From: Escherichia phage slur16
Length of the DNA: 64,000 bases
Direction: 5' to 3' (one strand)
Sequence record: NC_028248.1
The translations under genes and the position numbers were made by a program. How positions within the stretch are numbered: position 1 is the stretch's first letter; each line of letters begins with the position of its first letter. Below, piece after piece: positions 29,200 through 34,262 of the stretch. The notes beneath the pieces are model-generated. The model searched no databases, was not told the origin of the DNA, and saw only the letters and a list, made by a program, of their open reading frames with translations.

Positions 29200-29533
29200 C
29201 CATTCGAATTGTGTCGTTTATGTTCGGGCAAGGTCGCTAGTCTTGCCCCGCCATTTTCAGGCAGCTGCATGTCTCCATGCAGACCAGACTATATCTTATA
29301 AGCGACAACAACCGCTTATCCTCCCGTTTCGAATCGCTTGATTCTACGTCTTTCGACTAGTCGTTGAACGTTCATCCTCTCGGATGCTTCGCTGCGGATT
29401 ATCTAAATTAACACACTGTTACCATACCTTCGATCTCTCTTCGAAGCCTCTATCATGTTACCATGACAGGTTGGTGGTATTAATAGTAAAGATTTCCCCG
29501 CAATTAGGGAGGTTTTACGAGAGCTACAAATTA
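29200..29533 (-). ncRNA. Group I self-splicing intron (ORF-less) interrupting the terminase large subunit gene
   Basis: Minus-strand RNA contains the canonical group I core elements in order: P AAUUGCGGGGAAA (plus 29503-29516), Q AAUCCGCAGC (29391-29400), R GUUCAACGACUAGUCGAAAG (29350-29371), S AAGAUAUAGUCUGG (29284-29297). Exon 1 ends ...GAU GAG GGU immediately followed by an in-frame UAA; no ORF inside. Splice junctions estimated to within ~15 nt. Confidence 0.8.
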
Positions 29534-29959
29534 ACCCTCATCGAAGCAAACCATGGTGTACTCAAGCCCTTGATGGTTAAGCTTATCTTGTACATACTCC
29601 ATGTGGCAGTATTTTACAACAGCTCCCTTTTTGCTTCTATCCCACTTGCCAGTGTTCGGATCAAACCGTGGAAAAATGAACTTATGATCCTTCTCTCTGA
29701 ACTTTGGCTTAATGTTTTCAGGCAGATCACTATAAATAGCTACCGCTTTAGGCCATAGTCCACCCTCACCTTCCAACTGCGGGGTTGTTCTTCGGAACAT
29801 AACCACAGAGCTGTGGGGGTCATCAATAATTTTAAGTGGCATCAATTGCAAGAGGAACGACTTGCCAGACCCTGCGGCACCGCCGATTACCAAAATATCT
29901 GCATCGTTTTCGAGGATCATCTTCTGCTTTTCAGAACACGGTCCGTAAATCTTAGACAT
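29534..29959 (-). CDS. terL: Terminase large subunit, exon 1 (ATPase domain)
   Basis: Walker A GGAAGSGKS and Walker B MVCFDEG; the frame is closed by a UAA that is the first codon of the intron. Confidence 0.75.
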
Positions 29960-31062: not shown

Positions 31063-31139
31063 TGGTCTCCACGGAGTGATTCGAACACTCGACCTCCTGA
31101 TCCCAAATCAGGCGCTCTACCAAGCTGAGCTACGCGGAG
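31063..31139 (-). tRNA. tRNA-Pro (anticodon UGG)
   Basis: Folded by hand: acceptor CUCCGCG/CGUGGAG with C1:G72, anticodon stem CCUGA/UCAGG, loop UUUGGGA with G37, T-loop UUCGAAU, encoded CCA. Confidence 0.85.
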
Positions 31140-31150
31140 TATTTATTATT

Positions 31151-31225
31151 TGGTGGCCCTGGGTGGAATTGAACCACCGTCTGGCGATTATGAGTCGCTT
31201 GCTTGAACCTTCCAGCTACAGGGCC
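31151..31225 (-). tRNA. tRNA-Met (anticodon CAU; elongator type, tRNA-Ile2 not excluded)
   Basis: Acceptor GGCCCUG/CAGGGCC, anticodon loop CUCAUAA, T-arm GGUGG-UUCAAUU-CCACC, encoded CCA; G1:C72 argues against initiator. Confidence 0.8.
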
Positions 31226-31226
31226 A

Positions 31227-31302
31227 TGGTGCTGATGGCAGGACTTGAACCTGCAACCTATTGATTACAAATCAATTGCACTACCAATTGTGCTACATCA
31301 GC
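31227..31302 (-). tRNA. tRNA-Thr (anticodon UGU)
   Basis: 76-nt cloverleaf: acceptor GCUGAUG/CAUCAGC, D-stem GCAC/GUGC, anticodon stem AUUGA/UCAAU with loop UUUGUAA, T-arm GCAGG-UUCAAGU-CCUGC, CCA. Confidence 0.85.
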
Positions 31303-31308
31303 AAAAAA

Positions 31309-31407
31309 GGTGCTAGGTGATGGAATCGAACCACCTATGTATTCAACGACTACCTCGTCTATTTTCAGGATTAAAAATCCTCGCCCTTGCCAAAGGGCTT
31401 ACCTAGC
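31309..31407 (-). tRNA. Aberrant tRNA-like element (99 nt; possible tRNA-Lys UUU derivative with ~26 extra nt)
   Basis: Perfect 7-bp acceptor pairing GCUAGGU/ACCUAGC, D-arm GCCC-UUUGGCAA-GGGC, T-arm GGUGG-UUCGAUU-CCAUC, 3' end ...ACC followed by UUUUUU (no encoded CCA). The anticodon position is a palindromic hairpin AGGAUU-UUU-AAUCCU (alternatively a 4-bp stem with UUUUUAA loop, anticodon UUU), and ~30 nt lie between it and the T-arm. Confidence 0.35.
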
Positions 31408-31505
31408 TCAGTATGTTGACCATGTTGCTAGTCGGCGATGACGACTGTAACATTTGATAATCCGGTTCTGCTTCCGGCTTTCGCTTAATTACAAGGTCAA
31501 CAATA

Positions 31506-31596
31506 TGGCTGAGGGTAATGGAATCGAACCATCATCGAGTCATCCTCAACGGGACGGTTTTCAAGACCGCTTGAGCACCATTGCTCCCTACCCTCA
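31506..31596 (-). tRNA. tRNA-Ser (anticodon UGA)
   Basis: Type II tRNA: acceptor UGAGGGU/ACCCUCA, anticodon arm GCGGU-CUUGAAA-ACCGU, long variable arm (UUGAG-GAUGA-CUCGA), T-arm GAUGG-UUCGAUU-CCAUU, CCA. Confidence 0.8.
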
Positions 31597-31710
31597 TTTA
31601 TAAACAATACTGATAATGACACTGATTTTCGAGCAGTTAGTGACTAGTATAAACGACGATAAATATCAATGCCATTATCTGTATGATTTATGCATTTAAA
31701 ACTATAAATT

Positions 31711-31797
31711 TGGTGGGGAGTGGTGGAGTCGAACCACCCGAGTCGTAATGACAATAGATTTACAGTCTACACCGCTACCTCTACGGGATAACTCCCC
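31711..31797 (-). tRNA. tRNA-Tyr (anticodon GUA)
   Basis: Acceptor GGGGAGU/ACUCCCC, anticodon arm GUAGA-CUGUAAA-UCUAU, long variable arm, T-arm GGUGG-UUCGACU-CCACC, CCA. Confidence 0.8.
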
Positions 31798-31801
31798 AAT
31801 T

Positions 31802-31876
31802 TGGCACCCCGTACTGGACTCGAACCAGTGTCAACGGCTTAGAAGGCCGCTGCTTTATCCACTAAGCTAACAGGGC
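31802..31876 (-). tRNA. tRNA-Arg (anticodon UCU)
   Basis: Acceptor GCCCUGU/ACGGGGU (G-U wobbles), D-stem GCUU/AAGC, anticodon arm GCGGC-CUUCUAA-GCCGU, T-arm CUGG-UUCGAGU-CCAG, CCA. Confidence 0.8.
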
Positions 31877-31933
31877 ACTGGGTGGCTTTCTTTTACACCT
31901 TAGCCGCCAGAAAAGGTGGGAGACCATGTTTAC

Positions 31934-31962
31934 AATATTACACTGTTAAGCAAAGTTTGTCA
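31934..31962 (-). promoter_or_regulatory. Sigma70-type promoter driving the tRNA operon
   Basis: Minus strand TTGACA (plus 31957-31962), 17-nt spacer, TAATAT (plus 31934-31939); located ~55 nt upstream of tRNA-Arg. Confidence 0.55.
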
Positions 31963-31972
31963 AGAAAATATT

Positions 31973-32313
31973 TTAGCTATTGCTAACAGGTTGTATTTCT
32001 GTGGTAAATGGCATAAAAGGTGCTGGTTTTTCAGCCTCTTCTACTACCACCTCTTCCTCTTCACCAAACATCTCATCATATTCTTCCTGCATTCGGTCTG
32101 CCTTATCAAGAACATACTCTGCAATGCTTTGACGAATATTTTGTTTGGTTTTCGGGTCCAACATCAGCTCTCTTAGAACTTTGTGAGCTTCTGGAACCAT
32201 CGCTATAAAAGATTCCTTCATATCGAGGATGTTCTTCTCTAGCTGAATGGCGTTGGACTCCTCTTTCAGAGGTCTGCCTCTACGGCGACGCTTTTTAGTT
32301 GTATCCGCCATGT
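31973..32313 (-). CDS. Small basic protein with AT-hook-like motif (KRRRRGRPLK), hypothetical DNA-binding
   Basis: Start set at the Met of MADTTKKRRRRGRP, preceded by GGAGGAAAC RBS; the longer track ORF extends into a GC-rich non-coding island. Confidence 0.4.
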
Positions 32314-32659
32314 TTCCTCCATTATCACGTGATAGGTGGATTTTATCATAGCAAATACTGATTGTCAAGTTCGCCGCAGGGTGGTATTCCCTGCGACTTG
32401 TCCAGCGTCCTGGACCAGCAAGACCCAACAAGTGGGTTTTCCAGCTATACCCATTACCGCGCACAGGCTCGACCTTATTACAGGTTGGCTGGGGTCACAT
32501 CGTCATGTGCTGGCTGCCCCTACCATTTTAAGTGTGGTGCACTATCAAGCCCTCTAAGGGGAACTCAGCTTTCTCCGAACCCTGTTTCAAAGCATCCGGA
32601 GATAAAGCCATCAAATTCATCTTTAAATTGGATATTCATCATGATACACGAAAACAACC

Positions 32660-32902
32660 TCATTGTAAAGCACAAATAAATAAAACATACTTGATTTGTT
32701 TGTTATCGGGCTCAGGGTAGAAGTAGAAGATCTTGCTATCACCGATCTGAACACCACCATCCCAACAGCATAGCCCATAACCCGTATTCATACAAGCTAA
32801 GTCGTTGGCAAAATCTATTGCATCATCCAGTGCACGAAATTCACCTTCATCTTCTAAATAATCCTCATTCATGGAACGAAAAACGAGCTTAACCTTAAAC
32901 AT
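32660..32902 (-). CDS. Hypothetical protein
   Basis: 80-aa ORF, acidic. Confidence 0.3.
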   Translation of the reverse strand: MFKVKLVFRSMNEDYLEDEGEFRALDDAIDFANDLACMNTGYGLCCWDGGVQIGDSKIFYFYPEPDNKQIKYVLFICALQ

Positions 32903-32978
32903 AGCATTACCTGTAGACCTCGTAAGTTAAAATTGTATCACATCATATTGCAGATCTTATCAGGTAACATTATTTTTG

Positions 32979-33188
32979 TCAACAGATTCCGGCCTTATCC
33001 CTCCTGTCTGCGTATTCTTTAATCGCAACCTCATCTGCATTGGTGACTAAATCTTCAAAGTAACTCTCAAGCTCCTCGTCAATGTCAGGAAACCAACTCT
33101 TTTTCCTGTCAGTGTGAATCGCAGACTTGTTGAATTTATTACAGTTCTTTGCTACCGGATTGTTCATTAATCGCCCCTCAGCGTTCAT
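32979..33188 (-). CDS. Hypothetical protein
   Basis: 69-aa ORF. Confidence 0.25.
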   Translation of the reverse strand: MNAEGRLMNNPVAKNCNKFNKSAIHTDRKKSWFPDIDEELESYFEDLVTNADEVAIKEYADRRDKAGIC

Positions 33189-33756: not shown

Positions 33757-34262
33757 AGCTGCCTCCTCTTCAAGTTATAGAAAAACTCACTGTATCGCTT
33801 TGTAACGAGCTTTTCTATCAAACTGGTGCGATTGCCTTACCTGGTATAGTTTATATAGCTGTGGAGCGATTTAGGGGCCTTCTTGTCCGTTTCCACACAT
33901 AAACTTCATCCAAGCTCGCGCGGGAGACTCTCAACCGACTCCTTACGGCGCTGGCAAGCTTTCGTCGGTGGTCCACATCAGTGCTCGGCCTTTGGCCTGC
34001 GCTATCGCTTCGCTCCCACACATGTTAACAGACCTTCATGTATGCACTTCTGTTATTGTGTGCACCAAGGAGGCCCGGCATCTCGCCCCTCGTAGGCGAG
34101 TGCCAATGAAGGGCCGACACTACCTATAGTAAGTAATAAATTTAAAACATGGTACTTAGGATCTAGTATATTCTACATAAGTTAAGTATATGTATTTAGT
34201 ACCATAAGTACTAGATCTTTTATTTTTTTTATTATTTAGTTATTTTAGTTATATTCTTTATG

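Follow-up and report, generated by a model that had tools for sequence, protein, structure and literature searches.

Self-cleaving ribozymes of the hepatitis delta virus (HDV)-like class follow the strand order P1-P2-P3-P1'-P4-P2' and require a catalytic cytosine at the first J4/2 position, and the theta ribozymes, which are found in phages, adjoin tRNAs (PMC10879173). Within its tRNA cluster, phage T4 encodes the small stable non-coding RNAs rnaC and rnaD (species 1 and 2); riboswitch aptamers, including the tandem glycine type, combine a compact junction and a pseudoknot with invariant junction nucleotides; and the main text of a survey of IMG/VR reports 8,495 automatically predicted candidates for viral conserved structured RNAs (csRNAs) (Fremin et al. 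2023; PMC10690425). How do these systems relate to an island of about 350 bp (32314-32660) that lies between ORF75 and ORF74 of Escherichia phage slur16 (NC_028248.1), by its sequence a vequintavirus of the rV5/slur12 type? Coordinates are those of the 64,000-nt stretch of this genome that was analysed (the window), unless another record or a contig (L012 and the like) is named, and RNA features lie on its minus strand.

From the sequence comparisons reported here it is very probable that the minus strand of the island specifies a conserved and structured non-coding RNA. At its centre, 80 nt (32441-32520) represent in vequintaviruses a pseudoknotted RNA family of about 90 nt that occurs widely among phages; about 900 phage genomes carry it, as do viral and metagenome contigs, and on comparative grounds it is a new family of structured phage non-coding RNA outside Rfam 15. 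Searches with cmscan, with the gathering score or E<=10 as the threshold, gave no match over the element in the window and nine other loci, and Rfam scans at gathering and permissive E-values of the window and 17 other loci returned tRNAs, a group I intron and noise, and nothing else. Like the csRNAs, the element is a conserved, structured, intergenic and uncharacterised phage RNA candidate found by covariation; the main text of that survey mentions no vs.8- or rV5-associated motif, the catalogue itself lying outside this comparison (Fremin et al. 2023; PMC10690425), and no description of the motif was found in the literature, where again the catalogue entries were not compared.

Other kinships were considered and dropped. 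At 32369-32564, neither ARAGORN nor the Rfam tRNA model RF00005 calls anything, which rejects a tRNA or transfer-messenger RNA. With rnaC and rnaD the family shares its phage origin, its non-coding nature, its proximity to tRNA genes and a presumed processing, but it lacks the tRNA-like T arm found at the end of rnaC, and a covariance model of the family (R1, see below), run with filters off, found no match over 70908-71171 of the T4 record AF158101, so homology to these RNAs was not upheld. The GUAAUA hexaloop of the element is also carried by helix 44 of 23S rRNA, in the GTPase-associated centre; only the loop is shared, however, the helices and the junction being different.

Distribution and core fold of the family

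The family was collected by sensitive blastn with 32360-32600 (minus strand) as the query against 50,697 phage records. This returned 117 full-length vequintavirus records and about 786 other phage records, from T4-like phages of Escherichia, Shigella, Klebsiella, Yersinia, Citrobacter and Kosakonia and from Vibrio phages, which matched over the 45-nt centre alone (CCAGCCAACCTGTAATAAGGTCGAGCC....GCGGTAATGGGTA) at 82-96% identity. Filtered pattern scans of viral contigs and metagenomes extended the family beyond blastn, to a second, vequintavirus-like clade (L012, L016 and L095; the sister clade), to phage contigs of 46-70 kb (L040, L043, L066, L116 and others), to a 360-kb contig (L269) and to further lineages (L096, L126, L263, L311, L317, L327, L341, L377, L383, L386 and L388). 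The covariance model R1, built from 14 T4-like copies and including no vequintavirus sequence, matched the window at 32429-32521 with 43.9 bits (E=9.4e-8; next match E=0.45) and recovers 40 copies in 38 loci. The covariance-model scan suggested in the preliminary description of the island thus came out negative for known Rfam families, but positive for the model built in this analysis. A scan of bacterial genomes with a 14-base pattern gave 120 loci, essentially all of them chance matches to a pattern that is too loose, and because blastn of the element against 5,426 complete Escherichia coli genomes found no match, mimicry of a host sequence was rejected.

The family fold has two parts. In the first, a strand within helix P1 is complementary to the 3' tail, and their pairing creates an H-type pseudoknot; in the second, P4 closes a three-way junction to which the hexaloop hairpin ACCU-GURNNA-AGGU, a strand C-N-A, the short hairpin P5 (2-3 bp) and the strand GGUAA also belong. 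The window copy starts with the P1 strand GGGG (32517-32520), which pairs with CCCC (32491-32494), one of three hairpin pairings pointed out in the preliminary description. Within the P1 loop lies the pseudoknot strand CCAGC (32509-32513), complementary to GCUGG (32441-32445) at the end of the core, the equivalents of which covary in other lineages. The same loop holds the P2 hairpin CACAU-GACG-AUGUG (32496-32509), which is variable and optional across the family: it reads CUACG-GACG-CGUAG in the sister clade and has other sequences or is absent elsewhere. All junction elements are found at 32451-32488, namely P4 (CCA, 32486-32488, pairing with UGG, 32451-32453), the nearly invariant hexaloop hairpin ACCU-GUAAUA-AGGU (32472-32485), the strand CGA (32469-32471), P5 (GC-CUGUGC-GC, 32459-32468), whose second pair varies and is always paired, and GGUAA (32454-32458), identical in 40 of 40 aligned copies.

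Across the family, P1 has 4-7 bp and a different sequence in nearly every lineage (GGGG/CCCC in the window, GGGAA/UUCCC in T4, and GGGAG/CUCCC, GGAAC/GUUCC, GUACC/GGUAC, AAAGC/GCUUU, AAGGC/GCCUU, UGAGUG/CACUCA, UUGCGU/ACGCAA and others elsewhere). The 3' strand of the pseudoknot follows GGUAAUGG by 2-12 nt, and its pairing with the 5' strand takes the forms CCAGC/GCUGG (window), GAGG/CCUC, GAGGG/CCCUU, GGGAG/CUCCC, ACCAA/UUGGU, UCGA/UCGA, GAAG/CUUC, CGGA/UCCG, CGGU/GCCG, CCGA/UCGG, ACAC/GUGU and ACCA/UGGU. The innermost P4 pair is A-U, U-G, U-A or C-G depending on the lineage, with a non-standard C-A in one of 40 copies; P5 stems are GC/GC, GUC/GAC, GG/CC, GCC/GGC, GA/UC or GU/AC, and the second pair (C-G, U-A, G-C or A-U) is formed in all 40 copies. 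The hexaloop follows the consensus G(U/C)RNNA, most commonly GUAAUA, with GUGAUA, GUAACA, GUAAAA, GUAGCA and GCAAAA as variants. Besides the pseudoknot, the family is marked by about 25 near-invariant junction nucleotides.

ACC could also pair with GGU in GGUAA, and this may serve as a switch alternative to the hexaloop hairpin. The hairpin is preferred because two Kanagawavirus phages have G-C in place of its outer A-U pair in their second tandem copy, a double change that disfavours the alternative as the basic fold. Some lineages (L040, L043, L066, L116, L260 and L269) carry additional conserved flanking strands, GAAAGCAAAAA on the 5' and GUUAGUAG on the 3' side, and an outer helix closes the whole RNA in L040 (GUUGUGAC/GUCACAAC) and in L269 (AAUGU/GCAUU).

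Evidence from covariation

The preliminary description had proposed that related phages be compared for compensatory base changes, and such changes do maintain pairing across many lineages, in P1, P4, P5 and the pseudoknot alike. Two alignments were scored for this purpose: A2, an ungapped MAFFT alignment of the 14 copies from which R1 was built, of the Jiaodavirus/Gaprivervirus type, in which the full structure including the pseudoknot was evaluated, and A3, in which 40 copies were aligned by fitting to R1. In A2, 90.3% of cells are paired, as against 83.5+-0.9 in shuffles, and there are 20 double-change cells versus 6.3+-1.7, a number reached by none of 500 shuffles; controls in which the partners were slid by 1-3 columns gave at most four. 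The three central pseudoknot pairs are paired in every A2 copy, two of them with three pair types each, while the third never varies, and the innermost P4 pair is formed in 100% of A2 and 97% of A3. Each of five P1 pairs occurs as 4-5 pair types across the 40 copies of A3, and when partners were exchanged between lineages, none of 2000 permutations did as well for P1. RNAalifold, applied to A3, independently predicted P1, the hexaloop hairpin and P5. Finally, at least 12 lineages have complementary pseudoknot strands at this same position, with sequences that differ between them.

Three points weigh against taking all of these figures at face value. The A3 values (97% of cells paired; 100 double-change cells versus 25.5+-4.3) lean towards the structure, since that alignment was fitted to the model. 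The partner-exchange test for the pseudoknot family-wide is modest, with 118 of 5000 permutations as good, so that the evidence for this helix is moderate across the family and strong within the subfamily. Last, the pattern scans fixed CCTGT, AAGGT(C) and GGTAA, and the apparent invariance of CCUGU...AAGGUC...GGUAA is therefore largely forced, the members derived from blastn being free of that constraint.

Could the conserved stretch act as DNA instead, for example as a site of recombination or homing, as a signal for packaging or as an origin? A DNA site that spreads horizontally might leave 45-nt stretches that are nearly identical in phages otherwise unrelated, and terminase-related genes do lie downstream in some lineages (L096, and vs.8 with its weak match). 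This explanation is nonetheless very improbable, because the compensatory changes include G-U pairs that exist on the minus (RNA) strand only and would appear as A-C mismatches on the opposite strand or in cruciform DNA, and because the element keeps a constant orientation, always the same as that of the flanking genes and tRNAs.

Even less credence, indeed next to none, can be given to a GC-rich spacer with fortuitous hairpins, or to a plain terminator or insulator. What speaks for a chance origin is that single-sequence folding of the minus strand is only marginally above chance (z=-2.35, with 2 of 100 shuffles as good; z=-1.29 for the plus strand); the strong evidence for a structured RNA is comparative and does not come from folding one sequence. 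Conservation across the family and covariation contradict a chance spacer, and an intrinsic terminator is rejected for want of any GC-rich hairpin followed by a U-run, or any other terminator-like site, on the minus strand between 31800 and 34400.

Coding potential and the gene vs.8

Is the element part of a protein-coding gene? Open frames do exist: two antisense ORFs of 73 and 105 aa on the plus strand and a GTG-started 5' extension of ORF74 (163 aa) are the only long ORFs across the island, and in T4 the record AF158101 annotates vs.8 as a 219-aa protein beginning at 64912, such that its first 24 codons coincide with the RNA element (64841-64938, or L022:2342-2439 on the minus strand; 61 bits with R1), which starts directly after the denV stop codon. 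Yet minus-strand ORFs of at least 30 aa are missing over 32465-32527, stops occur in each of the three minus frames of 32369-32564, and all genes around the island lie on the minus strand, opposite to the antisense frames. In T4-like phages the conserved nucleotides occupy each of the three frames with respect to vs.8, and stops ahead of the short vs.8 start close the frame in 20 of 24 distinct sequences, for which reasons the element is not coding there; furthermore, indels in P5 and P2 are not multiples of three and no third-position pattern of variation is seen. A coding origin is therefore extremely improbable, and the preference of the preliminary description for a structured RNA or leader over a protein is borne out by the compensatory changes, the G-U pairs and the frames of the T4-like copies, the pattern of conservation being other than that of a protein-coding frame. 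Frame analysis, strand-specific G-U pairs and covariation together contradict the protein-coding, DNA-level and chance explanations. The true vs.8 start is probably an ATG about 110 nt downstream (MRTFLT...).

In T4-like phages the element always occupies the short gap before vs.8, whereas the gene upstream varies (denV, ip4, ipIII or ip7). Such a setting invites the idea that the RNA is a cis-regulatory leader or riboswitch, whose junction would bind a metabolite or signalling molecule and thereby switch downstream genes, that is vs.8 in T4-like phages and ORF74 with the tRNA operon in vequintaviruses. After the element and ahead of the vs.8 start, T4-like phages conserve the sequence AUGGA...AUG(Y)GCCA-NGGAA-UGGCC (for instance in L003:1546-1600 and L017:445-500), and its GCCA-NGGAA-UGGC hairpin may represent an expression platform or an additional domain. 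A leader peptide, M-C/R-Q/H-G-M-A, was also considered for this segment and rejected, since several lineages have lost the start codon of the short upstream ORF and retain the GCC(A)/(U)GGC hairpin. Tandem copies occur ahead of vs.8 in Kanagawavirus phages (L019:344-596, L104 and L123) and in an unrelated 44.6-kb contig, L311 (804-893, with a second copy from about 921). Together with the compact junction, the pseudoknot and the near-invariant junction nucleotides, they give the family a likeness to aptamers, among them the tandem glycine type; the position in a 5' untranslated region is shared with riboswitches in T4-like phages only.

Beyond T4-like phages, however, the leader explanation encounters difficulties that make it rather unlikely as a general account. 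Scans of the neighbouring genes with PHROG and Pfam revealed no common downstream gene, the families being unrelated or of unknown function, which sets the element apart from riboswitches. A clear platform for sequestering a Shine-Dalgarno sequence was not recognised, nor was a demonstrable switch in the T4-like hairpin, which precedes the vs.8 ribosome-binding site. No terminator was found either; in the window the element is set off from ORF74 by a strong promoter, P74, and other copies are embedded directly after tRNAs or stand at operon ends, facing convergent genes.

As to vs.8 itself, it is described as a terminase-like protein that is toxic together with the defence sensor EcAvs2 (bioRxiv 10.64898/2026.04.30.721860). 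In the scans made here, it shows a weak large-terminase match. Terminase-related genes occur near the element in 3-4 lineages, and in a few lineages packaging-related genes lie within 0.1-0.8 kb downstream of it: the terminase-ATPase-like vs.8 in T4-like phages, small and large terminase genes in L096 (2067-3763; the small terminase about 800 nt downstream), and a protein carrying a GNPNGRP motif in L327 (1185-1517, minus strand). This is a weak thread that could be a coincidence.

Genomic contexts and possible functions

Outside T4-like phages, tRNA genes are recurrent neighbours of the element. The copy in L388 starts 8 nt after tRNA-Gly and that in L269 starts 24 nt after tRNA-Glu, inside a tRNA cluster; six other copies (L040, L260, L367, L116, L066 and L387) are found 200-360 nt upstream of a co-oriented tRNA-Arg/Met, and co-oriented tRNA genes also lie nearby in L012 and L095, as in the window, where they follow about 450 nt downstream. 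By contrast with a leader, the copies in L126 and in a Vibrio phage are the last feature of their transcription unit and face convergent genes.

These contexts raise the question of whether the family might be a new class of self-cleaving ribozymes, comparable to the HDV-like theta ribozymes, that would cut polycistronic transcripts of early genes and tRNA clusters. What makes the idea attractive is the strand order, for the family sequence P1a-PKa-hairpin-P1b-junction domain-PKb describes the same nested double pseudoknot as in HDV-like ribozymes, together with the presence of theta ribozymes beside tRNAs (PMC10879173) and with the context-independence typical of small ribozymes. Like HDV-like and theta ribozymes, the family is about 60-100 nt in size, has a peripheral hairpin domain that varies, is carried by phages and has copies directly 3' of tRNAs; its contexts are gene-independent, tandem copies exist, and its size and degree of core conservation are typical of small ribozymes. 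Nevertheless, membership of the HDV-like class fails on two counts: the nucleotide corresponding to the first of J4/2, where a catalytic C is required, is G in most copies, that of the window included, and otherwise C, U or A, and five lineages (the L040, L043, L269, L263 and L311 types) lack a counterpart of the P3/L3 hairpin. In addition, the P4 equivalent forms a three-way junction in which about 20 nucleotides are invariant, unlike HDV-like ribozymes, which vary in sequence; Rfam models of HDV-type and other ribozymes give no match at E<=5-10, and a cleavage site cannot be inferred from the sequence. A new ribozyme class is thus an unlikely explanation.

There is, in our judgement, about an even chance that the element is a self-contained RNA module, co-transcribed with early or tRNA operons, whose invariant junction would be exposed to a conserved partner. 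The RNA would be made within early or tRNA-operon transcripts and would probably be trimmed out of them in the manner of the small stable RNAs of phage tRNA clusters; the junction would then bind a partner conserved across hosts, be it a protein of the host or of the phage, another RNA or a small molecule, and no regulation tied to a single downstream gene would be involved. Such a module is favoured by the independence of the contexts from particular genes, by the embedding in tRNA clusters, by the promoter that precedes the sister-clade RNA and by the helix that closes the L040 and L269 types. Three observations count against it: no terminator follows the element in the window, the element lies 45-110 nt ahead of the vs.8 start codon, as a leader would, in all T4-like loci examined, and the tandem copies before vs.8 and in L311 also fit a riboswitch.

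Should the family prove to be a new class of catalytic or sensing RNA, for which we see a real if lesser chance, it may be a self-cleaving ribozyme of HDV-like topology with a different active site, acting in the processing of early or tRNA transcripts of the phage, or an aptamer for a host-derived signal that many unrelated virulent phages, among them T4, have put to use.

The vequintavirus locus and its neighbourhood

In the window the core is flanked by clade-specific modules, giving a structured RNA proper of about 187 nt (32375-32561). Its 5' extension starts with the hairpin CCCC-UUAG-AGGG (32550-32561), invariant in 10 vequintavirus sequences, continues with the strand CUUGAUAGUGC (32539-32549) and ends in the hairpin ACCA-CACUUAAAA-UGGU (32522-32538), which is conserved and offers no informative variation. 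On the 3' side, the hairpin CCCA-CUUGU-UGGG followed by (U)CUUG (32424-32436) resembles the 5' accessory module and has CCC-AUAGA-GGG-CUUG as its counterpart in the sister clade. Next comes CUUG..GUCCAG-GACG-CUGGAC..AAG (32397-32422), with compensatory variation in alignment A4: the GUCCAG/CUGGAC stem reads GCUCAG/CUGAGC in L326, two compensatory changes, whereas L008 and YP-6 have U-G wobbles in it and JohannBauhin a single mismatch. The last hairpin, CGCAGGG-AAUACCA-CCCUGCG (32375-32395), has no U-tract and is not terminator-like; it is absent from the sister clade (A1 and A4). These two stems are the other hairpins named in the preliminary description, which had counted all three correctly on the minus strand. 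Despite indels just before it, the 3' strand of the pseudoknot is kept as CUGG in all vequintavirus variants (A4).

A consensus promoter (TTGACA-17-TATACT) lies about 10 nt before the 5' module in the sister clade (A1), and going by its sequence the RNA there heads its own transcript. The equivalent in the window is not promoter-like, so transcription would come from read-through from ORF75 (32660-32902), the gene on the 5' side of the island, or from a promoter-like site at 32641-32669 (TTTACA-17-TATCAT), which overlaps the ORF75 end, has 10 of 12 consensus matches, is not annotated in rV5 and may be the start of a transcript running through the island. On the 3' side, ORF74 (31973-32311) has its own sigma-70 promoter, P74 (32340-32368; TTGACA-17-TAAAAT with TG; 11 of 12 consensus matches), annotated in rV5 and situated inside the interval first flagged but outside the RNA.

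The composition of the island has to be read with these features in mind. Described at first as clearly GC-rich, the full interval has 47.3% GC, only in the top 12% of windows of that size (window mean 43.6%), whereas the inner 196 nt (32369-32564) reach 55.6%, the top 0.2% of 196-nt windows. Nor are the 350 bp to be taken as free of other features throughout: the 3' 55 nt consist of P74 and the ORF74 leader, and the 5' 95 nt hold a mini-ORF, which leaves about 32369-32564 as the unexplained part.

This mini-ORF of 32 codons (MRLFSCIMMNIQFKDEFDGFISGCFETGFGES; 32565-32663, minus strand), whose start overlaps the ORF75 stop (ATGA), has an uncertain coding status: it is annotated in slur12, JohannBauhin and YP-6 and is without annotation in rV5, and a Pfam search with it gave no match. 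Its sister-clade counterpart has 8 codons only (MKDEFDGF; alignment A1, L095:455-481) and conserves the nucleotides of KDEFDGF, a stretch that may encode a small peptide or be part of a regulatory sequence.

The protein encoded by ORF74 belongs to PHROG 3330 and has an arginine-rich N-terminal stretch (KKRRRRGRP) resembling an AT-hook or an arginine-rich RNA-binding motif. The loop GACG is common to two vequintavirus hairpins (32501-32504 and 32408-32411) and to their covarying counterparts in the sister clade, and it is conceivable from these sequences that the ORF74 protein pairs with the GACG-loop hairpins.

After ORF74, a cluster of seven tRNA genes (31063-31876, minus strand) is called by ARAGORN. 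A 99-nt tRNA-like gene (31309-31407, minus strand) scores 35.5 bits with the Rfam tRNA model and is without annotation in rV5; ARAGORN leaves its identity undetermined and reads a 4-base 'anticodon' (atcc), and it may be an unusual tRNA or a tRNA with an insertion. A group I intron (29265-29543, minus strand; 84.3 bits with Rfam) interrupts the large terminase gene, given in rV5 as a three-piece join, and the sister-clade locus L012 has a group I intron as well (81.4 bits).

A second GC-rich island at 33760-34140 (minus strand) attains the window maximum of up to 58.7% GC, with a fold z of -2.1. It is 90-100% identical in the 117 vequintaviruses and found only there, matches neither Rfam nor R1, and is unannotated in most records apart from a doubtful 56-aa 'ORF78' in rV5; possibly it is another clade-specific structured RNA. 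Over 31900-33000 the window shows 100% identity to slur12 and rV5_ev147, and 117 records match it at 95% or more. Eighteen records labelled as Campylobacter phages share 92-99% identity with vequintaviruses of E. coli in the regions compared; C9, the one inspected among them, is marked UNVERIFIED, and the host label looks doubtful.

Significance

An RNA common to T4-like, rV5-like, Vibrio, jumbo and uncultured phages has thus gone unannotated in about 900 sequenced phages, and conservation of this kind is usual in ribozymes, riboswitches and RNAs that dock onto core host machinery. Even in T4, among the best-studied of phages, the reference record reads the element as the first 24 codons of vs.8, and the vs.8 start in T4-like records should be corrected accordingly. 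The covariance model can be used for annotating phage genomes, and as T4 and rV5-type phages are easily manipulated, the function of the RNA is directly testable. Were the RNA to control expression of vs.8, this would bear on the interplay between phages and host defence.

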